DNA of 64,000 nucleotides from Squalus acanthias (lineage: Eukaryota), in NCBI GenBank assembly GCA_030390025.1, contig JASTWF010000322.1:124001-188000 (forward strand), in the 5' to 3' direction. A model generated the notes under the pieces. It was given only the letters and a program-made list of their open reading frames with translations, searched no databases and was not told where the DNA came from. This document shows, one piece after another, positions 24,401 to 45,287 of this stretch; the first letter of the stretch is position 1; every line of letters starts with the position of its first letter. Position numbers and translations under genes: made by a program.

Positions 24401-27003
24401 CCTGTTCCCGTGTAACAGGCTCGAGGGGCTGAATGGGCCTCCTCCTGTTCCTGTGTAACAGGCTCGAGAGGCTGAATGGCCTCCTCCTGTTCCTGTGTAA
24501 CAGGCTCGAGGGGCTGAATGGGCCTCCTACTGTTCCTGTGTAACAGGCCCGAAGGGCTGAATGGGCCTCCTCCTGTTCCTGTGTAACAGGCTCGAGGGTC
24601 TGAATGGGCCTCCTCCTGTTCCTGTGTAAACAGGCTCGAGGGGCTGAATGGGCCTCCTCCTGTCCCTGTGTAACAGGCTCGAGGGTCTGAATGGGCCTCC
24701 TCCTGTTCCTGTGTAACAGGCTCGAGGGACTGAATGGGCCTCCTCCTGTTCGTGTGTAACAGGCTCGAGGGGCTGAATGGGCCTCCTCCTGTTCCTGTGT
24801 AAACAGGCTCGAGGGTCTGAATGGGCCTCCTCCTGTTCCTGTGTAACAGGCTCGAGGGGCTGAATGGGCCTCCTCCTGTTCGTGTGTAACAGGCTCGAGG
24901 GGCTGAATGGGCCTCCTCCTGTTCCTGTGTAAACAGGCTCGAGTGGCTGAATGGGCCTCCTCCTGTTCCTGTGTAAACAGGCTCGAGGGGCTGAATGGGC
25001 CTCCTCCTGTTCCTGTGTAACAGGCTCGAGGGGCTGAATGGCCCTCCTCCTGTTCCTGTAAACAGGCTCGAGGGGCTGAATGGGCCTCCTCCTGTTCCTG
25101 TGGAACAGGCTCGAGGGGCTGAATGGGCCTCCTCCTGTTCCTGTGTAACAGGCTCGAGGGGGCTGAATGGGCCTCCTCCTGTTCCTGTGTAACAGGCTCG
25201 AGGTGCTGAATGGGCCTCCTCCTGTTCCTGTGTAACAGGCTCGAGGGTCTGAATGGGCCTCCTCCTGTTCCTGTGTAAACAGGCTCGAGGGGCTGAATGG
25301 GCCTCCTCCTGTCCCTGTGTAACAGGCTCGAGGGTCTGAATGGGCCTCCTCCTGTTCCTGTGTAACAGGCTCGAGGGGCTGAATGGGCCTCCTCCTGTTC
25401 GTGTGTAACAGGCTCGAGGGGCTGAATGGGCCTCCTCCTGTTCCTGTGTAAACAGGCTCGAGTGGCTGAATGGGCCTCCTCCTGTTCCTGTGTAAACAGG
25501 CTCGAGGGGCTGAATGGGCCTCCTCCTGTCCCTGTGTAACAGGCTCGAGGGTCTGAATGGGCCTCCTCCTGTTCCTGTGTAACAGGCTCGAGGGGCTGAA
25601 TGGGCCTCCTCCTGTTCCTGTGTAACAGGCTTGAGGGTGCTAAATGGGCCTCCTCCTGTTCCCGTGTAACAGGCTCGAGGGGCTGAATGGGCCTCCTCCT
25701 GTTCCTGTGTAACAGGCTTGAGGGTGCTAAATGGGCCTCCTCTGTTCCTGTGTAACAGGCTCGAGATGGCTGAATGGGCCTCCTCCTATTTCTGTGTCAC
25801 AAGCTCGAGGGGCTGAATGGGCCTGTTCCTGTGTAGCAGGCTCGAGGGGCTGAATGGGCCTCCTCCTGTTCCTGTGTAACAGGCTCGAGGGGCTGAATGG
25901 GCCTCCTCCTGTTCCTGTGTAACAGGCTCGAGGGGGCTGAATGGGCCTCCTCCTGTTCCTGTGTAACAGGCTCGAGGGTCTGAATGTGCCTCCTCCTGTT
26001 CCTGTGTAAACAGGCTCGAGGGGCTGAATGGGCCTCCTCCTGTCCCTGTGTAACAGGCTCGAGGGTCTGAATGGGCCTCCTCCTGTTCCTGTGTAACAGG
26101 CTCGAGGGGCTGAATGGGCCTCCTCCTGTTCGTGTGTAACAGGCTCGAGGGGCTGAATGGGCCTCCTCCTGTTCCTGTGTAAACAGGCTCGAGTGGCTGA
26201 ATGGGCCTCCTCCTGTTCCTGTGTAAACAGGCTCGAGGGGCTGAATGGGCCTCCTCCTGTTCCTGTGTAACAGGCTCGAGGGGCTGAATGGCCCTCCTCC
26301 TGTTCCTGTATAACAGGCTCGAGGGGCTGAATGGGCCTCCTCCTGTTCCTGTGGAACAGGCTCGAGGGGCTGAATGGGCCTCCTCCTGTTCCTGTGTAAC
26401 AGGCTCGAGGGGGCTGAATGGGCCTCCTCCTGTTCCTGTGTAACAGGCTCGAGGTGCTGAATGGGCCTCCTCCTGTTCCTGTGTAACAGGCTCGAGGGTC
26501 TGAATGGGCCTCCTCCTGTTCCTGTGTAAACAGGCTCGAGGGGCTGAATGGGCCTCCTCCTGTCCCTGTGTAACAGGCTCGAGGGTCTGAATGGGCCTCC
26601 TCCTGTTCCTGTGTAACAGGCTCGAGGGGCTGAATGGGCCTCCTCCTGTTCGTGTGTAACAGGCTCGAGGGGCTGAATGGGCCTCCTCCTTTTCCTGTGT
26701 AAACAGGCTCGAGTGGCTGAATGGGCCTCCTCCTGTTCCTGTGTAAACAGGCTCGAGGGGCTGAATGGGCCTCCTCCTGTTCCTGTGTAACAGGCTCGAG
26801 GGGCTGAATGGCCCTCCTCCTGTTCCTGTATAACAGGCTCGAGGGGCTGAATGGGCCTCCTCCTGTTCCTGTGGAACAGGCTCGAGGGGCTGAATGGGCC
26901 TCCTCCTGTTCCTGTGTAACAGGCTCGAGGGGGCTGAATGGGCCTCCTCCTGTTCCTGTGTAACAGGCTCGAGGTGCTGAATGGGCCTCCTCCTGTTCCT
27001 ATG
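21490..27003 (+). repeat. 43-bp CR1-tail minisatellite, about 128 copies, opposite orientation to 14985-19522
   Basis: Unit caggctcgaggggctgaatgggcctcctcctgttcctgtgtaa, with recurring variant units forming higher-order blocks. Confidence 0.95.
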
Positions 27004-27096
27004 TGTCCTTTTGTGAAAAGGATGGACATCGGCTGATTCCTCAAACCTCCCCATTCCGCGCTCTCTCTCATCCTGTTTCTGTGCTGTAAACTGTAT

Positions 27097-27785
27097 GGGC
27101 TGGATTTTACCAGCCCTTTGGAGGCGGGACTGCCAGGAAAATGGCAGACACTGGTAGTTAACAGGCAGTTTTGAGGCTTTTCCCCATTTTACGCCTGCAA
27201 TTGCGGGCTTCCCGACGTCGGGGAAACCCCGCCAGGGTCAGCGAGGCGAGCAGTGGGTCTGCAGGGGGTGAGAGGGGTCGAAATGTCCGCCGTGGAGGTG
27301 AGTGATGGGTGCAAGTGTGGACAGGTAAGTCTGAGAGGTGAGTGTGAAGTGTTGGAAAAAGTTTCCTTACCTTTGTTTCTTTCTGCAGGCTTCAACCATT
27401 GAGGATCTGGAGGTGCCTCATCTCAACGGCAGAGCTGACAGAATGGCTGCTGCATTCTCAGATGCAGCAGCCATCTGCTTTCTGCTGAGGAGAGAGAGGT
27501 CTTGGTGAGCCTTCAGTGCAAGGGCTCACCTTGGAACAGAGATTGTCAGTGTTTGACAGCTTCTCAAATGCTGACAATTCATCTGTCAATAAAATTTCGA
27601 CAGATGAAGCGTCATCTGCTGACGTCCTCTGTCACCGGCTTTCCCTTAATCGGCCGGTAAGCCCGCAGGGCAAGGCCAATCAAGGGAAAATAGCGTGGGT
27701 TCGTCAGATGTCGCTGGGGGCGGGACTAGAACCCGGAAGGCAGCAGTCCCGCCCCCAACTCGTCATGGCTGGCAAAATCCAGACC
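27097..27785. mobile_element. Non-autonomous DNA transposon, PIF/Harbinger-like (689 bp)
   Basis: Imperfect TIRs gggctggattttaccagcc / ggctggcaaaatccagacc and a 3-bp TAT TSD (27094-27096, 27786-27788). Confidence 0.75.
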
Positions 27786-27804
27786 TATTATATCCGTTGA
27801 TTAT

Positions 27805-28440
27805 AATAAATAAAGCCAATTACAGCGGTATGAGGGGCGAGTTGGCTAAGGTAGATTGGAAAAATAGATTAAAAGGTATGGTGAGACCACACCTTGAGTA
27901 CTGTGTGCAGTTTTGGTCGCCTTATCTGAGGAAGGATGTTCTTGCCATGGAAGGAGTTCAGCGAAGATTCACAAGGCTGATACCTGGGATGGCAAGAATG
28001 ACGTATGAAGAGAGATTGGGTCGATTGGGCTTATACTCGCTGGAGTTTAGAAGAATGAGAGGGGATCTCATTGAAACTTATAAAATTCTGACAGGACAGG
28101 ACAGGACAGGACAAACTAGATGCAGGAAGGATGTTCCCGATGGCCGGGGGAGTCCAGAACCAGGGGTCACAGTCTAAGGATAAGGGGTAAGCCATTTAGG
28201 ACAGAAATGAGGAAGAATTTCTTCACCCAGAGAGTGGTGAACCTGTGGAATTCTCTACCACAGAAGGCAGTTGAGGCCAATTCATTAAATAGATTCAAGA
28301 AGGAGTTAGATATAGTTCTTAAGGCTAAAGGGATCAAGGGATATGGGGAGAAGGCAGGGACAGGGTACTGAATTTGGATGATCAGCCATGATCTCATTGA
28401 ATGGCGGAGCAGGCTCGAGGGGCTGAATGGCCTACTCCTG
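27805..28440 (+). mobile_element. Chimeric CR1 fragment (short endonuclease-RT linker piece fused to a 3' end)
   Basis: KVDWKNRLKGM joins directly to [12 protein letters not shown]; the tail runs into a 43-bp array. Confidence 0.85.
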
Positions 28441-31131: not shown

Positions 31132-31150
31132 TATTATATCCGTTGATTAT

Positions 31151-31812
31151 AATAAATAAAGCCAATTACAGCGGTATGAGGGGCGAGTTGGCTAAGGTAG
31201 ATTGGAAAAATAGATTAAAAGGTATGGTGAGACCACACCTTGAGTACTGTGTGCAGTTTTGGTCGCCTTATCTGAGGAAGGATGTTCTTGCCATGGAAGG
31301 AGTTCAGCGAAGATTCACAAGGCTGATACCTGGGATGGCAAGAATGACGTATGAAGAGAGATTGGGTCGATTGGGCTTATACTCGCTGGAGTTTAGAAGA
31401 ATGAGAGGGGATCTCATTGAAACTTATAAAATTCTGACAGGACAGGACAGGACAGGACAGGACAAACTAGATGCAGGAAGGATGTTCCCGATGGCCGGGG
31501 GAGTCCAGAACCAGGGGTCACAGTCTAAGGATAAGGGGTAAGCCATTTAGGACAGAAATGAGGAAGAATTTCTTCACCCAGAGAGTGGTGAACCTGTGGA
31601 ATTCTCTACCACAGAAGGCAGTTGAGGCCAATTCATTAAATAGATTCAAGAAGGAGTTAGATATAGTTCTTAAGGCTAAAGGGATCAAGGGATATGGGGA
31701 GAAGGCAGGGACAGGGTACTGAATTTGGATGATCAGCCATGATCTCATTGAATGGCGGAGCAGGCTCGAGGGGCTGAATGGCCTACTCCTGCTCCTATCT
31801 TCTATGATTCTA
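31151..31812 (+). mobile_element. Duplicate chimeric CR1 fragment with a normal, unamplified tail
   Basis: Copy of 27805-28440 with one extra gacag unit; ends cctatcttctatgattctat. Confidence 0.85.
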
Positions 31813-33280: not shown

Positions 33281-33923
33281 GGATGCACTGGTTTTGAGCT
33301 TCCAAAATTCCCTAGATTCTGGAACGGTCCCAGCGGATTGGAAGGTCGCAAATGTAACACCGCTATTCAAGAAAGGAGGGAGAGAGAAAACGGGGAACTA
33401 CAGGCCAGTTAGCCTGACAACAGTCATCGGGAAAATGCTGGAATCCATTGTTGAGGAAGTGGTATCAGGGCACTTAGAAAATCATAACATGATTAGGCAG
33501 AGTCAACATGGTTTGATGAAAGGGAAATCATGTTTGACAAATTTATTAGAGTTTTTTGAGGATGTAACTAGCAGGGTAGATAAAGGGGAACCAGTGGATG
33601 TAGTATATTTGGATTTCCAAAAGGCATTCGATAAGGTGCCACATAAAAGGTTATTACACAAGATAAGGGCTCATGGGGTTGGGGGTAATATATTAGCATG
33701 GATAGAGGATTAGTTAACGGACAGAAAACAGAAAGTAGGGATAAACGGGTCTTTTTCGGGTTGGCAGGCTGTAACTAGTGGGGTGTCGCAGGGATCAGTG
33801 CTGGGGCCTCAGCTATTTACAATCTATATTAATGACCTAGATGAAGGGACTGAGTGTAATGTATCCAAGTTTGCTGACGATACAAAGCTAGGTGGGACAG
33901 TAAAAAGTGAGGAGAACACAAAG

Positions 33924-34124
33924 TGTCGTAAGAATGAGCCTTACGCGTGGTGAAATTAAAGTAAGCTTTAATCAACTAAAAAGGTGCTACATACAAAAGA
34001 GGTCTTACTCTATGCCTCTCCAGGATCCAACTGATCAGTCCAGTATTTAGTATTTATCCTGGACTAATCACAGGAAGTGATGCAATAAAGTTCGAGTCAC
34101 AGGAAGCTGTATTGTGTTACCACA
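33924..34124 (-). repeat. 3' LTR (201 bp), preceded on the minus strand by the PPT (poly-G)-AGAA (34125-34137)
   Basis: Differs from 38206-38399 by one substitution and a 7-bp duplication. Confidence 0.93.
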
Positions 34125-34188
34125 TTCTCCCCCCCCCAAAAGATTAGGAGGCCGGGATGAAGTTCGAGTCACAGGAAGCTGTATTGTG

Positions 34189-37100
34189 TTACCACATTCT
34201 CCCTCCATTTCGTAGCCGCTGGACGAGGGAGAGCCGCACCCGTTTGGGTTCTCGTAGCGGTAGAGGGCCCCTAGCCCGTTTACCCGCCGCGGGCCGTGGA
34301 CCAGAGTCCGAGTGATCCAGTCCGCTCTGTGAGGGGTCAGGACGATCCTGACTGTGTACTGGTGCCCGAACGGGTGTCGGGCAGGGCTGTGGCAGATCCG
34401 TTTCCGAGCGTACGGTACAGGGTGGATCGTGGCTGCGCGTGCGAGCCCCGACGGGCTCATAGTCAGTCTGCCCCAGGTCGGCATGCTGGAGTGAGGTACC
34501 AGCCGGCGTCAGATCCAGATCGTGATGAGAGGCACCTGGCGAGCCCAGAGATGTGCCTGGTACAATATCATCCCCTGGTGTCCCTCTATGTTTCGGCGGG
34601 CAGGGAGCCAGATCCCGCAATGACACGGTAGATTCCCGACCGTCAGGATACCGAATATAGGCGTAGGTAGGGTTGACGTCAGTGAGCTCAACCTCATCTA
34701 CCAGGGGGTCATTCTTAGACGCCCGGACATATCTTCGGAGTAGCACTGGTCCCGGTGCAGTCAGCCACGACGGGAGAGATATCCCATAGGATGAGCGACG
34801 CTGAAATCGGAAGAACCGTTCATGAGGCGTCGTGTTTCTGGCGGTCGAAAGGAGGGACCGTGTGGAGTTTAATGCGTCTGGAAGTACTGCTTCCCATTGC
34901 TGGTTGGGTAGGCCCCGAGATCTCAAAGCCAGACGTACCGCATTCCAGATGATAGCGTTAAAACGCTCGACTTGCCCATTCCCGACCGGATGATAAGGCG
35001 TCGTTTTGCTGGCAGCAATACCCCATTCCGAGAGATAGGCCTTGAGTTCTCCTGACATAAAAGAAGGGCCCCGATCCGAATGAACATAGGATGCCATGCC
35101 ACAGAAAGCAAATACCTGCTCAAGGCAGCTGATAACCGTGGTCGTCAGCATATTGGGGCAGGGAAAGGCAAACGGAAAACGGGAATACTCATCGACCATG
35201 GTCAATAGATAAGTGTTGCGAGTTGAAGAGGGCAATGGCCCCTTAAAATCGATGCTAAGCCGTTGCATTGGCTGGGTCGCATGTATGAGTATACCACCCG
35301 AGGGGTGGAAAAACCGAGGTTTCAATTCCGCACAGACTCTGCAGTCCGAGCACATCTTCTTTACATCCCCGGTAGAGAATGGGAGATTTCGGGACCGCAC
35401 GAAGTGTAGCATGCGAGTAACGCCCGGATGACACAACCCATCATGGATGTCTACGAGCGTAGAGGGTGCCATGGCAGAGCAGAATGCTCGTGTGAGGGTA
35501 TCCGGAGCCACATTCTCCTTGCCAGGTCGATAGTGGATGGTGTAACCAAAAGAGGCCAATTCCAGCCGCCAAAGCTGGATTTTATTATTTTTAATTTTGG
35601 TCCGTTTTCGATTATCGAGCATGAAGGCGACCGATCGCTGGTCCGTGATTAAGGTAAAGTGCTGGCGAGCTAGGAGATGACTCCACTTCCGTACTGCCTC
35701 TATGATGGCTGTAGCTTCTTTCTCGACTGGAGGATAATGTAGCTCAGCCCCTTGAAAAGTCCTGGACAAAAATGCCACCGGACGACCTTCCTGATTCAGA
35801 GTGGTTGAGATCGCCACCTCCGAGGCATCACACTCAATGACAAAAGGAAGACTCTCATCGATGGAGTGAAGAGCCGCTTTCTCCAACTGTTTTTTCAGGA
35901 GGTTAAAGGCTGCAACAGCCGCTGTGTCTAGTGGGAATGTGCTGGCCTTCAGTAGAGGTTGGATTCGGTCCGAGAAGTTAGGAATCCATTTAGCATAGTA
36001 TGCAAACAGGCCGAGGGCCCGGCGCAAGGAGGCTGGATTCTTAGGTGGCGGGAGTTCTTGGAGTGGGCGAAGCCTTTCAGGGTCAGGTTTAATGATGCCA
36101 TTGCCCACACAATAGCCAAGGATGTTGATGGTTGGTTGTGACTCAATGGATTTAGCCGCATTTAATGTCAAATTACGGTGCTGGAGTGCATCCCAAAATC
36201 GTTGGAGATTGGCGTCATGTTCCCGCTGATTGCGACCTGCGACAGTAATATTGTCCAGATAAGGAAACGTATCCTTCAAGTCTTCCTGTTTGACCAGGTC
36301 ATCCATTGCTCGCTGGAAGACAGCCACTCCATTAGTGACCCCAAAGGGGAGGCGACGAAATTGATACAGCCGTCCATTGGCTTCAAAGGCCGTATACTGC
36401 TTGTCTGAGACCTTCAAGGGTACCTGATGATAGGCACTTTTCAGATCATATGTTGAGAACACCGTGTACTCAGCCAATTTATTAACCATATCATCGATGC
36501 GCGGCAATGGGTATGCGTCCAAGTCCGTATATTGATTGATGGTCTGTGAATAGTCAATGCACAGCCGTTTCTTGTGAGGTTGTAGAGGGTTCTTAACAAT
36601 AACGACCTGGGCGAGCCATGGCGACGAACAAGGCTCGATGATATCCTCTGCTAAAAGCCGAGAAATCTCAGCCGCAATAAAAGACTGGTCTTCCTGACTG
36701 AAACGTCGTGACTTTGTTATAATCGGTTTGCATCGAGGAGGGATATTGGAAAACAGTGAGGGTTCATCCAGTGAAGCTGCTGACAATGCACAGAACGGTA
36801 ATCGAGGTAGTATATTAGAAATAGTGAATTCAGGTTTGGATCCGCCGAACTCAATGGTGAGCTTCTTATGCTGCTTTTGAAAATCCAGCCCTAAGATAAG
36901 ATCACTACATAAGTCCTTGAGCACCGAAAGCCGGGTGGAGGGATACCTGCGACCATTAAGTGTTATTTCAACCATACAAAAGCCAGAAATTCTGGTATTA
37001 AGTGATGACTGAGCCATCGCAATTGCCTGGTCCGATGGGAAAACATGTAGCTTTAACTCTGCAACAATCTGTTCCCTAATGAAACTATCAGTGCTACCTG

Positions 37101-38127: not shown

Positions 38128-38205
38128 GATGGGTGATTCCCTGGATCCTTAGTTCCGAGTTCGTCCAAAAAGTTTGAGTGCGAAGTTTCCCAAAGTTGAT
38201 TAAAT

Positions 38206-38399
38206 TGTCGTAAGAATGAGCCTTACGCGTGGTGAACTTAAAGTAAGCTTTAATCAACTAAAAAGGTGCTACATACAAAAGAGGTCTTACTCTATGCCTC
38301 TCCAGGATCCAACTGATCAGTCCAGTATTTATCCTGGACTAATCACAGGAAGTGATGCAATAAAGTTCGAGTCACAGGAAGCTGTATTGTGTTACCACA
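38206..38399 (-). repeat. 5' LTR (194 bp)
   Basis: Minus strand TGTGGTAAC...TTACGACA, with TATA-like GATAAATA and ATTAAA. Confidence 0.93.
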
Positions 38400-38523
38400 C
38401 AACAAAGAGTCTGCAAAGGGATATAGATAGACTAAGTGAGTGGGCAGTAAGGTGGCAGATAGAGTATAATGTAGGGAAATGTGAGGTTATTCACTTTGGT
38501 AGGAAGAATAGAAAAACAGAAAC

Positions 38524-39015
38524 ATCTCTCTCTCTGTATATCAGTGTGGTTCTGATCCTGTGTCTCTGATACTGTCAGTGAGTGAGGGACCGATACTGTA
38601 TCTCTCTCTCTGTATATCAGTGTGGGACTGATCCTGTGTCTCTGATACTGTCAGTGAGTGAGGGACCGATACTGTATCTCTCTCTCTGTATATCAGTGTG
38701 GGACTGATCCTGTGTCTGTGTGTCTCTGATACTGTCAGTGAGTGAGGGACCGATACTGTATCTCTCTCTCTGTATATCAGTGTGGGACTGATCCTGTGTC
38801 TGTGTTTCTCTGACACTGTCAGTGAGTGAGGGACCGATACTGTGTCTCTCTGTATATCAGTGTGGGACTGATCCTGTGTCTCTGATACTGCCAGTGAGTG
38901 AGGGACCGATACTGTATCTCTCTCTGTATATCAGTGTGGGACTGATCCTGTGTCTCTGATACTGTCAGTGAGTGAGGGACCGATACTGTATCTCTCTCTC
39001 TCTATATCAGTGTGG
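38524..39015. repeat. Minisatellite, about 76 bp unit, about 6 copies
   Basis: Unit tctctctgtatatcagtgtgggactgatcctgtgtctctgatactgtcagtgagtgagggaccgatactgta. Confidence 0.9.
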
Positions 39016-39019
39016 GAGG

Positions 39020-40642
39020 TGTCTCTCAGACCCCTCTGCCTCAGGGAGATATCTGTACACTGACTGGTGTCCCTCAGTCCTCTCTCTCTCAGGAAGATAT
39101 CTGTACACTGACTGGTGCCTCTCAGTCCCTCTCTCTCTCAGGGAGATATCTGTACATTGACTGGGGTCTCTCAGTCCCTCTCCCTCAGGGAGATCTCTGT
39201 ACACTGACTGGTGTCTCTCGGCCCCTCTCTCTCAGCGAGATATCTGTACACTGACTGGTGTCTCTCAGTCCCCTCTCCCTCAGGGAGATATCTGTACACT
39301 GACTGGTGTCTCTCAGTCCCCTCTCCCTCAGGGAGATATCTGTCCACTGACTGGTGTCTGTCTCAGTCCCTCTCTCTCAGGGAGATATCTGTACACTGAC
39401 TGGTGTCTCTCAGTCCCCTCTCCCTCAGGGAGATATCTGTACACTGACTGGTGTCTCTCAGTCCCTCTCTCTCAGGGAGATATCTGTACACTGACTGGTG
39501 TCTCTCAGTCCCCTCTCCCTCAGGGAGATATCTGTCCACTGACTGGTGTCACTCAGTCCCCTCTCCCTCAGGCAGATATCTGTACACTGCCTGGTGTCTC
39601 TCAGTCCCCTCTCCCTCAGGGAGATATCTGTACACTGACTGGTGTCTCTCCGTCCCTCTCCCTCAGGGAGATATCTGTACACTGACTGGTGTCACTCAGT
39701 CCCCTCTCCCTCAGGCAGATATCTGTACACTGCCTGGTGTCTCTCAGTCCCTCTCTCCCTCAGGGAGATATCTGTACACTGACTGGTGTCTCTCGGCCCC
39801 CTCTCTGGGAGATATCTGTACACTGACTGGTGTCGCTCAGTCCCTCTCTCTCAAGGAGATATCTGTACACTGACAGTCCCTCTCTCTCAGGGAGATATCT
39901 GTACACTGACTGGTGTCTCTCAGTCCCCTCTCCCTCAGGGAGATATCTGTACACTGACTGGTGTCTCTCAGTCCCCTCTCCCTCAGGGAGATATCTGTAC
40001 ACTGACTGGGGTCTCTCAGTCCTCTCTCTCTCTCAGGGAGATATTTGCACACTGACTGGTGTCTCTCAGTCCCTCTCTTCAGGGAGATATCTGCACACTG
40101 ACTGGTGTCTCTCAGTCCCCTCTCCCTCAGGGAGATATCTGTACACTGACTGGTGTCTCTCGGCCCCTCTCCCTCAGGGAGATATCTGTACACTGACTGG
40201 TGTCTCTCAGTCCCTCTCCCTCAGGGAGATATCTGTACACACACTGGTGTCTCTCAGTCCCCTCTCTCTCAGGGAGATATCTGTACACTGACTGGTGTCT
40301 CTCAGTCCCTCTCCCTCAGGGAGATATCTGTACACTGACTGATGTCTCTCAGTCCCTCTCTCTCAAGGAGATATCTGTACACTGACTGGTGTCTCTCAGT
40401 CCCTCTCTCCCTCAGGAGATATCTGTACACTGCCTGGTGTCTCTCAGTCCCTCTCTCCCTCAGGGAGATATCTGTACACTGACTGGTGTCGCTCAGTCCC
40501 CTGTCCCTCAGGGAGATATCTGTACACTGACTGGTGTCTGTCTCAGTCCCTCTCCCTCAGGGAGATATCTGTACACTGACTGGTGTCTCTCAGTCCCCTC
40601 TCTCTCAGGGTAATATCTGTACACTGACTGGTGTCTCTCAGT
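39020..40642. repeat. Minisatellite, about 48 bp unit, about 33 copies
   Basis: Unit cagggagatatctgtacactgactggtgtctctcagtcccctctccct. Confidence 0.93.
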
Positions 40643-41344
40643 TTATCGCTTTCTTAATCCCACGATTGTAGGCTTTGCAAAATCCCCCAGAAACTTGTAT
40701 AAGAACCCTAAAGGGGGTGAGTTTTGGACCTTAACACGAATTTGGAATGATGGGACCTAAATGAAGGAATTTGAGGTCAAAACCTCAGTTTTGGACATTT
40801 TTAAGGATCAGGGAAGAAAAATACTGAGGAAAATGACTTTGGATAATATTATACCTTTAAAAGGGCCATTGGGAAAACCTGCAGTTACAGAAACAACACA
40901 GGCTGCGGGAAAGGGTGTGGTGAGGCAGTGGACAGCTTTCGGATATTGGGACCAAGCCAAGCTGTCTGGGAGATGTTTGCACTGCAATCCAACCAAGGAG
41001 GAAGAGCCTCGCCCAAAACCTCACAAACACATCCAAAAAAACAAATAAACCAAGACCCTTTTGAAATCCCCAGGTCCAAACAGAATGCTGGAAGTCTGAA
41101 AACAATTCCGAACAATAAGACTTCCAGCACATAGCTTCACAACCCATCATCCCATCAAAAACCAATTAGCCAAGTATCTACAGGAACAGACTTAACGAGC
41201 CCGCCAAAAACCTGAGACAAAAGGAGCAAGATTTGGCGCGTAGATAAAGGCCCTGCCTAAATGGGAGACATCGGAAGCCATCAGGACAAGTTAACATAAA
41301 GTTAAAGTCATCAGACTTAATGAGCCCGCCAAAACCTAAGACAA

Positions 41345-43233: not shown

Positions 43234-43862
43234 GTAAATGGTATGTTGGCCTTTGTAGTGAAAGGGTTCGAGTACAGGAACAAGGTCTTGCTGCAGCTGT
43301 ACAGGGCCTTGGTGAGACTACACCTTGAGTATTGTGTGCCGTTTTGGTCGCCTTATCTGAGGAAGGATGTTCTTGCCATGGAGGCTGATACCTGGAATGG
43401 CAGGAATGACGTATGAAGAGAGATTGGGTCGATTGGGCTTATACTCGCTAGAGTTTAGAAGAATGAGAGGGGATCTCATTGAAACTTATAAAATTCTAAC
43501 AGGACTAGACAGACTAGATGCAGGAAGGATGTTCCTGATGGCCAGGGAGTCCAGAACCAGGGGGTCACAGTCTAAGGATAAGGGGTAAGCCATTTAGGAC
43601 TGAGATGAGGAGGAATTTCTTCACCCAGAGAGTGGTGAACCTGTGGAATTCTCTACCACAGAAGGCAGTAGAGGCCAATTCATTAAATATATTCAAGAAG
43701 GAGTTAGATATATTTCTTAAGGCTAAAGGGATCAAGGGATATGGGGAGAAAGCAGGGACAGGGTACTGAATTTGGATGATCAGCCGTGATCTCATTGAAT
43801 GGCAGAGCAGGCTCGAGGGGCTGAATGGCCTACTCCTGCTCCTATCTTCTATGTTTTCTATG
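43234..43862 (+). mobile_element. CR1 3' fragment
   Basis: NGMLAFVVKGFEYR onward, plus the tail. Confidence 0.9.
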
Positions 43863-44452
43863 CAATTCTCCCTCGCCGGTACCGTGTGTTCCCCAACCTG
43901 TGTTTTAAGCATTAAGTGTGTTTTAAGTTTGTTCCCCTTTTCTTTAATAAAAGTCAAAACTCTTTCATCAAAACCTGTTGTCTACTGCACCTTTGTTCAC
44001 AACCCCCAAATAAGTCCACGGTCTAGAACCAGGGGCGTGGGAGCGATTCGACCCGCTCACTGAGTCAGAGGTGAAGCTGACCCCTACCACACCACCCCCG
44101 ACAGATGTGTAGCTCTTAGTGCCTTTGCCCAGACAGGGGCCGATGTCAAGCCGTCTGCGTACCTTAGTCTCCGCATTCTGACGATCGCCGTGCCGACGTT
44201 CAGACCGTTCACAGACGTTCCCCAAGAGAGGTGACTCCTCGCAGACACCGGGACAGTCTGAGCGCGCGCCGTGGCATTGAATCTTGGTGTGGCCGTAAAC
44301 GAGACTCGCGGTCATAGCCAATCCGCGACACGTTTTCCAAAACTTTGATTGGGAACCGCGCGTTCGAACGCAGTCTTTAAACTCGTGGTACATCTCGAGA
44401 ACCAGGGAGGTAGAAGACGGGAAGAAACTCTACTATACGTACAATACATATC

Positions 44453-45287
44453 AGCATGGCAGATGCATTATAATGTGGATAAATGCGAGGTTATCCACTT
44501 TGGTGTCAAAAACAGAAAGGCAGATTATTATCTGAATGGCAATAGATTGGGAGAAGGGGAAGTGCAACGAGACCTGGGTGTCCTTGTGCACCAGTCGCTG
44601 AAGGTAAGCATGCAGGTGCAGCAGGCGGTGAAGAAGGCAAATGGTATGTTGGCCTTCATAGTGAAAGGGTTTGAGTATAGGAACAAGGATGTCCTGCTGC
44701 AGTTGTACAGGGCCTTGGTGAGACCACACCTTGAGTAGTGTGTGCAGTTTTGGTCGCCTTATCTGAGGAAGGATGTTCTTGCCATGGAAGGAATTCAGCG
44801 AAGATCCACAAGGCTGGTACCTGGGATGACAGGAATGACATATGAAGAGAGATTGGGTCAATTGGGCTTATACTCGCTGGAGTTTAGAAGAATGAGAGGG
44901 GATGTCATTGAAACTTATAAAATTCTGACAGGACAGGACAAACTAGATGCAGGAAGGATGTTCCCTATGGTCGGGGAGTCCAGAACCAGGGGTCATAATC
45001 TAAGGCTAAGGGGTAAGCCATTTAGGACAGAAATGAGGAGGAATTGCTTCACCCAGAGAGTGATGAACCGGTGGAATTCTCTGCCACAAAAGGCAGTAGA
45101 GGCCAATTCATTAAATATATTCAAGAAGGAGTTGGATATATTTCTTAAGGCTAAAGGGATCAAGGGATATGGGGAGAAAGCAGGGACAGGGTACAGAGTT
45201 TGGATGATCAGCCATGATCGCATTGAATGGCGGAGCAGGCTCGAGGGGCCAAATGGCCTACTCCTGCTCCTATCTTCTATGATTCTA
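44453..45287 (+). mobile_element. CR1 3' fragment
   Basis: WQMHYNVDKCEV onward, plus the tail. Confidence 0.9.

Follow-up and report, generated by a model that had tools for sequence, protein, structure and literature searches.

Pairing of the primer-binding site with the element's own LTR suggests self-primed reverse transcription in a chromodomain-less clade of metazoan Ty3/gypsy retrotransposons

A complete LTR retrotransposon in the genome of Squalus acanthias carries, at the position of its primer-binding site (PBS), a sequence that is complementary to a segment of its own LTR. Related elements keep this pairing at the same position while its sequence changes from family to family. The element lies on the minus strand of the window, by which we mean the whole 64-kb stretch of DNA that was analyzed, and the site singled out in an earlier note on this DNA is its 5' end. 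Our analysis establishes the pairing, its fixed position and its covariation across families. The earlier note had read the arrangement as a tRNA-independent, self-priming design, and this reading is supported by the covariation, by the fixed geometry and by the lack of a TGG at the LTR end. Self-priming of the type known from the yeast element Tf1 is the best interpretation of the pairing, and on the comparative evidence described below we regard it as probable. Priming of this kind is known; what appears to be new, and is well supported by sequence comparison, is its use in a metazoan clade that lacks a chromodomain and probably belongs to the Mag lineage. The features of the element are listed in Table 1.

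Table 1. Features of the retrotransposon in the window, in the order of its minus-strand transcript
Feature	Position	Strand	Remarks
5' LTR, TG...CA, 194 nt	38206..38399	minus	aligned with 3' LTR; ends ...TTACGACA
TATA-like box, GATAAATAC	38325..38333	minus	start 74 nt, end 66 nt before the primer arm; putative function
Primer arm in LTR, AGTTGATTAAA	38249..38259	minus	last six bases are ATTAAA, poly(A)-signal-like
Hairpin 1, GCUUA-CUU-UAAGU, 5 bp	38236..38248	minus	directly behind the primer arm; predicted fold
Hairpin 2, CGUAAGG / UCUUACG, 7 bp, last pair G.U	38209..38227	minus	just before the LTR end; predicted fold
Spacer, single A	38205	minus	between the terminal CA of the LTR and the PBS; column invariant in 23 of 23 aligned families
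Candidate PBS, TTTAATCAACT	38194..38204	minus	complementary to the LTR arm
gag-pol, one open frame, 1312 codons	34189..38127	minus	ATG 38127, stop 34191-34189
Polypurine tract, GGGGGGGGGAGAA	34125..34137	minus	abuts 3' LTR
3' LTR, 201 nt	33924..34124	minus	second primer-arm copy at 33977-33967; no PBS behind it

The two LTRs differ by one mismatch and a 7-nt indel. The sole mismatch falls inside hairpin 1, at whose position relatives carry an RCC...GGY stem, and a hairpin directly behind the arm is predicted in most of the 20 families that were folded. The single gag-pol frame encodes two CCHC knuckles, protease, reverse transcriptase, RNase H (PF17917, E 1e-25) and integrase. Its best solved relative is Ty3 Gag-Pol (E 3.7e-59), and no chromodomain was matched in the protein at E values up to 0.01.

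Several other characteristics of the locus were recorded. Contigs from three other sequencing runs skip 39 nt near 34160-34196 on the minus strand (joint 34159 to 34199). A clean 5-bp target duplication is absent at the LTR ends as defined here (38400-38410 and 33914-33923), and CTTTGT is found on both flanks only when the 5' LTR takes two extra bases (TG). Just before the LTR start, TG is present in 15 of 28 other copies and G in 24 of 28, so the true LTR end may lie further out, unless these bases reflect a target preference. A clean 5-bp duplication does occur in one copy of a sister family (L114). The stretches 25040-28000, 38527-39017 and 38980-40650 are taken up by long satellite arrays, whose periods are about 43, 38 and 48 nt, and the array with the 38-nt period abuts the 5' side of the element. 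A direct repeat of about 600 nt, with copies 100% identical and 3346 nt apart (27786-28389 and 31132-31740; also noted at 43287-44940), flanks a proline- and glycine-rich tandem repeat and codes for the C-terminal portion of a reverse transcriptase frame of the LINE type. This repeat looks like a local duplication, not an LTR pair.

In the window copy, the 11 nt at 38204-38194 are the perfect reverse complement of the LTR motif at 38259-38249, exactly to the base as the earlier note had claimed. The bases that flank the duplex are unpaired, and it is therefore exactly 11 bp long. The intervening loop of 44 nt (38248-38205) does contain the second stem that had been described, although this stem is somewhat longer, at 7 bp including a G.U pair over 38227-38209; it sits where a U5 stem-loop would. 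No TGG adjoins the LTR, the nearest being 13 nt downstream of the LTR end (38192-38190). When the first 20 nt after the LTR were shuffled, a complement of at least 11 nt anywhere in the LTR arose in 12 of 20,000 shuffles. The 73-nt stretch at 38262-38190 folds with a z score of -3.33 (1 of 200 dinucleotide shuffles folded as well), and the MFE and centroid folds of the 182-nt leader both contain the 11-bp helix; the leader overall is no more stable than its shuffles (z = -0.10). A partner for the arm is present only behind the 5' LTR, not behind the 3' LTR.

The 3.7-Gb host genome contains numerous MHC class I exons, as expected of a jawed vertebrate. The LTR has at least 1442 first-look candidate matches genome-wide, and the 40 that were scored are 99-100% identical; as judged by these sequences, the family is very young. 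The arm and the PBS are invariant among 28 LTR-to-leader junctions (28 other copies, from 29 loci), so that copies of this family cannot show covariation. The bases just after the PBS do differ among the 28 copies, in three forms represented by 20, 7 and 1 copies. The TGG downstream of the LTR was rejected as a possible displaced tRNA site, since priming is tied to the LTR boundary and since this TGG varies with the three forms and is absent in the sister families. G-to-A changes at this TGG are also seen in contigs from other organisms. Near-identical copies (95-100%) occur in runs from five different organisms, which could reflect shared ancestry among close species or recent spread.

Sister families were recovered by a protein search of the same genome with a distant relative as the query. 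A second family, which accounts for 28 of the 30 loci in that search, has an arm and a PBS that pair over 13 nt; in a third family the two pair over 12 nt; and one decayed copy found in the same search has a PBS with two mismatches. The proteins of these two sister families are 67-71% identical to that of the window element, and their LTRs are otherwise unlike. In the three vertebrate families, the gag ATG lies 66-109 nt from the PBS helix. The sister family is very abundant and young, and in most of its scored copies a frame of about 1315 residues is uninterrupted.

More distant relatives extend this picture well beyond one genome. Proteins 45-68% identical to that of the window element are numerous, with named hosts that include shrimp, copepod, ascidian, cnidarian and nematode genomes. 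Overall, relatives with 45-71% protein identity keep the pairing, comprising the two sister families and about 20 families on metagenome contigs. The latter came from a scan of metagenome contigs with a 16-protein alignment, which yielded 552 confirmed relatives, of which 80 loci were kept (loci are numbered with the prefix L). Inverted repeats with a loop of 20-100 nt were sought in the 300 nt before the gag ATG at the 26 metagenome loci in which both a gag start and the DNA before it are available. In 19 of the 26 loci, the longest such repeat was 10-19 nt, as compared with 9 of 520 shuffles that reached at least 10 nt. All 19 positive loci share one geometry, with the 3' arm directly behind ...CA and one A, and the 5' arm 21-66 nt upstream. 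Three further positives were found in contig tails, in which a 3' LTR is followed by the next PBS, and another inside L071. Taken over all relatives, the partner lies 21-70 nt upstream, and the PBS starts 1 nt past the terminal CA in every relative with a definable LTR end. Two older copies (L084 and L085) have pairing of 7-8 nt plus more with mismatches, and the PBS of L085 still matches its 3' LTR copy over 16 nt. The repeat is absent in L039, L057, L107 and L109, in which no LTR end is definable, and L043, whose LTR end is not definable either, is ambiguous.

Covariation was assessed in an alignment of 23 distinct rows that spans 20 nt before the end of the arm to 20 nt past the start of the PBS and is gap-free at both ends. 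Because rows were picked for showing the repeat, the percentages of paired cells given here are inflated, but the double changes and the slid controls are independent of this choice. The comparison that the earlier note had proposed, between the PBS 11-mer and the LTR motif across the family, gave a strongly positive result. Over 16 pairs and 23 rows, 87.5% of cells pair, as compared with 71.6% in shuffles (reached in 0 of 500), and when the partner is slid by 1-3 columns, only 27-51% of cells pair. Changes on both sides are found in 12 of the 16 pairs tested, and the number of cells changed on both sides is 59, versus 19 in shuffles (again reached in 0 of 500). The 11-bp core is paired in 248 of 253 cells. 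Although pairing outside the core drops to 18, 17, 12, 13 and 14 of 23 rows, these outer five pairs are still paired in 64% of cells, versus 52% in shuffles (0 of 500), and in relatives the pairing often extends to 12-19 nt. Some columns show little variation: CAATTT is invariant in 23 of 23 rows, and the last three pairs are A:U throughout, apart from one G.U pair in a single row. The clearest individual example is the comparison of L035 and L066, which differ at 5 of about 243 aligned positions, 2 of the 5 being one compensating pair. In L073 and L097, the LTR arm lacks the TTAAA ending (ATTGAA and ATGAAA, respectively) and the PBS keeps TTTAAT, so that one family has a G.U pair and the other a mismatch. 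This pattern fits pairing at the RNA level and indicates that the hexamer is not indispensable.

These observations can be accommodated in a scheme similar to that of Tf1. Minus-strand DNA synthesis begins at a point that defines where the 5' LTR ends, and therefore the primer must anneal at 38204 and downstream. In the genomic RNA, the 11-nt segment of the R region at 38259-38249 would fold back over the 44-nt loop, with its two small hairpins, and pair with 38204-38194. A cut past the last A of the arm (after 38249), for which the RNase H of the element is the most likely enzyme by analogy with Tf1, would leave a 3'-OH, from which reverse transcriptase could copy the spacer, U5 and the remainder of R. 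The short minus-strand DNA would then transfer to the 3' end of the RNA, onto a copy of R that would have to reach past the arm. Later, the plus strand would copy the primer, so that a mutation in the arm would be written into the PBS; such copying would account for the ease with which arm and PBS change in concert. From these relations we infer the location of the arm at or near the 5' end of the RNA, the cut, the enzyme responsible and the poly(A) site.

The sequences upstream of the arm bear on where the transcript might start. The earlier note had placed the TATA-like box about 55 nt from the motif, which is too close (see Table 1). Its caution regarding the transcription start is nonetheless justified, because a TATA box is conserved upstream of the motif in three families: a TATAAATACT box is common to the LTRs of all three families of the genome, 74-96 nt upstream of the arm. 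The primer segment may therefore lie within the RNA rather than at its 5' end. If transcription starts about 30 nt past the box, the distance from the 5' end of the RNA to the arm would be roughly 40-65 nt, which suggests a primer with a 5' tail, unlike the primer of Tf1. However, two characteristics of the alignment point against such an early start set by the TATA box. G is present at -10 in 23 of 23 rows and A at -11 in 20 of 23, so that a near-invariant AG stands exactly 11 nt from the end of the arm. An AG at the far end of the arm resembles an initiator motif, and these two bases hint at a start or cut signal. Also, pairing drops sharply beyond 11-13 nt, and this drop counts against a long 5' tail on the primer, because such a tail would also be copied by the plus strand. 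Conversely, it cannot be that every family starts its transcript precisely at the 11-mer, given that pairing often covers 12-19 nt and that the outer pairs exceed controls. Searches for transcript ends gave no element reads in one raw poly(A) RNA run, no polyadenylated retrocopies (LTR arm followed by 0-30 nt and A12) in the genome and no poly(A) tails on metagenome contigs, whose ends inside LTRs look like assembly breaks.

The overlap of the arm with a possible poly(A) signal, also pointed out in the earlier note, raises the question of whether the duplex has a different role. The overlap is present in the window copy (ATTAAA), and 13 of the 23 aligned families have AATAAA or ATTAAA at the end of the arm, but the other 10 lack a canonical hexamer and have GTTAAA, TTTAAA, TTAAAA, TGAAAA, ATTGAA or ATGAAA instead. 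A G/T-rich stretch follows the hexamer in many families, and these two characteristics together indicate that the hexamer is probably a poly(A) signal in many of them. Local RNA helices that include the poly(A) hexamer of R are known from HIV-1, in which the poly(A) hairpin is found in both R copies. In the window element, the hexamer in R is likewise within a helix that could keep the 5' copy silent, but the partner is the PBS and is available at the 5' end only; the duplex may thus hide ATTAAA in the 5' copy alone. An explanation in which the helix does nothing else, with the 5' R copy paired, the 3' copy used and priming performed by some other molecule, would account for the frequent hexamer and for a partner that exists only behind the 5' LTR. 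It does not explain why that partner always starts 1 nt past the CA of the LTR, a point fixed by the start of the minus strand, and no other primer site is present or conserved. Given also the families with non-canonical hexamers, we consider poly(A) masking as the sole function quite unlikely. As a second role of the same duplex, however, masking is fully compatible with priming, so that this earlier suggestion is tenable as an addition to self-priming but not as its replacement.

A function of the long-range helix solely in packaging, dimerization or control of gag translation appears similarly improbable. In invertebrate relatives, the helix is near the start codon, the gag ATG being within 1-21 nt after the PBS in many of them, and the pairing of L104 extends into the ATG context. 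Yet the distance to the ATG in the three vertebrate families is much larger, and such functions leave both the fixed junction with the LTR end and the missing alternative primer site unexplained. It is very unlikely that the primer is a host small RNA (a tRNA, a tRNA fragment, or an snRNA or rRNA end) that ends in ...AGUUGAUUAAA, with the LTR motif being incidental. The same 11-mer core does recur in five families from at least three sources (window, L114, L111, L041 and L098), as a shared host primer might require. However, the 23 families have at least 16 different PBS sequences, each matched by its own LTR, and four PBS sequences are present within one assembly (L035, L036, L038 and L051). 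A PBS that differs between families even in one assembly, yet changes with its own LTR, cannot be explained by a tRNA or other host RNA primer, which gives the LTR no reason to covary. There is also no TGG for the CCA end of a tRNA, and the window contains no tRNA genes or Rfam matches. A search for host tRNA families gave 63 matches, of which 20 small regions were examined; these 20 host tRNA genes, representing Lys-UUU and Cys-GCA only, pair with the PBS over at most 5 nt, a sample too narrow by itself to exclude tRNAs. Finally, chance complementarity might be suspected because both arms are A/T-rich and because the shuffled controls already pair in 72% of cells as a consequence of conserved columns. 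The low shuffle frequencies (12 of 20,000, 0 of 500 and 9 of 520) and the compensating changes argue otherwise, and this explanation, refuted by the comparison of families, can practically be dismissed. Self-priming of the Tf1 type thus is the interpretation that we favor.

To our knowledge, self-priming has been proven only in fission-yeast elements; predictions of it exist for related chromoviruses and for a few groups of copia elements in plants. Stem-loops between the primer and the PBS, forming a U5-IR-like structure, are a feature of Tf1-type self-priming. Tf1 and Tf2 of Schizosaccharomyces pombe and Tj1 of S. japonicus resemble the window element in that the PBS beside the 5' LTR pairs with the element's own LTR RNA and not with a tRNA, in the stem-loops between primer and PBS (predicted here) and in having an RNase H domain available for the cut. 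They differ in that they are chromoviruses of yeast, whereas the window clade lacks a chromodomain and has metazoan hosts, and in that the window arm overlaps a poly(A)-signal-like hexamer. Also, the mechanism is experimentally demonstrated for Tf1 and Tf2, as described in passages of PMC7175516 and PMC5341516, whereas for the window element it is predicted from sequence. According to the former source, the primer duplex of Tf1 has 11 bp, the same core length as in the window element (PMC7175516). The primer of Tf1 is the first 11 nt of its transcript, whereas the window arm is perhaps internal, as judged by its TATA box.

Self-priming has been assigned, in the literature consulted, to Tf1, Tf2 and Tj1, to fungal relatives together with the vertebrate sushi group, to Tcn1 and to plant TAR copia elements (PMC6317226, PMC6934838, PMC2864245, PMC4600332). 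Vertebrate hosts are therein already on record for the sushi group (PMC6317226, PMC4600332). As in our study, self-priming of sushi-ichi, of Tcn1 (fungi and mosses) and of the plant TAR copia elements is predicted from complementarity between LTR and PBS alone. The gypsy members among these, the Tf1/sushi group and Tcn1, are chromoviruses, whereas the clade of the window element has no chromodomain, none being present in the Pfam lists of the 120 relatives listed. By the chromodomain test, the window element, which would work like Tf1, is outside the Tf1/sushi chromovirus group.

The window element looks like a member of the Mag lineage, a placement made by features rather than by a tree. It has the domain order PR-RT-RH-IN, two CCHC knuckles, no env and short LTRs (127-231 nt across the clade). 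With Mag, SURL / C-clade and Jule elements it has in common the single gag-pol frame, the two CCHC knuckles and the short LTRs, and both groups occur in marine invertebrate and vertebrate hosts. Two CCHC knuckles are given for the Mag lineage in PMC2577118, the LTR of the Mag C model is listed at about 174 nt in Table 1 of PMC3601003, and Mag-like features are also covered in PMC2996953 and PMC6238403. Mosquito elements of this lineage are reported to have primer sites for tRNA-Leu or tRNA-Ser (PMC3286476), whereas the window element has no such site. In the literature searched, no report of self-priming in Mag/SURL elements was found, and a mention in older original papers on individual elements is possible. 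The search returned self-priming only for Tf1/sushi, Tcn1 and plant TAR elements, plus a hairpin idea for the fungal element GalEa.

A broader reading combines these points, and we put it forward tentatively, as plausible rather than probable. A whole clade of metazoan Ty3/gypsy elements, without a chromodomain and probably of the Mag lineage, might do without tRNA primers and use instead a segment of R that carries the poly(A) hexamer. This clade would be common in marine invertebrates and have thousands of young copies in the present vertebrate. One duplex would then have three jobs, namely to prime reverse transcription, to silence the 5' poly(A) signal and to rewrite the PBS to match the LTR in each cycle. 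The primer might also be cut from inside the RNA rather than consist of its first bases, which would depart from self-priming as described for Tf1.

If the clade self-primes, then priming without a tRNA has either evolved repeatedly or is an old trait that is widespread among the gypsy elements of animals. Such elements would be misjudged by annotation pipelines in which a tRNA-type PBS is required. Given abundant and very young copies in a vertebrate, RNA ends and strong-stop cDNA should be readable directly from tissue. The family could thereby settle whether an internal segment of the RNA can serve as a self-primer and whether priming is linked to poly(A) control.
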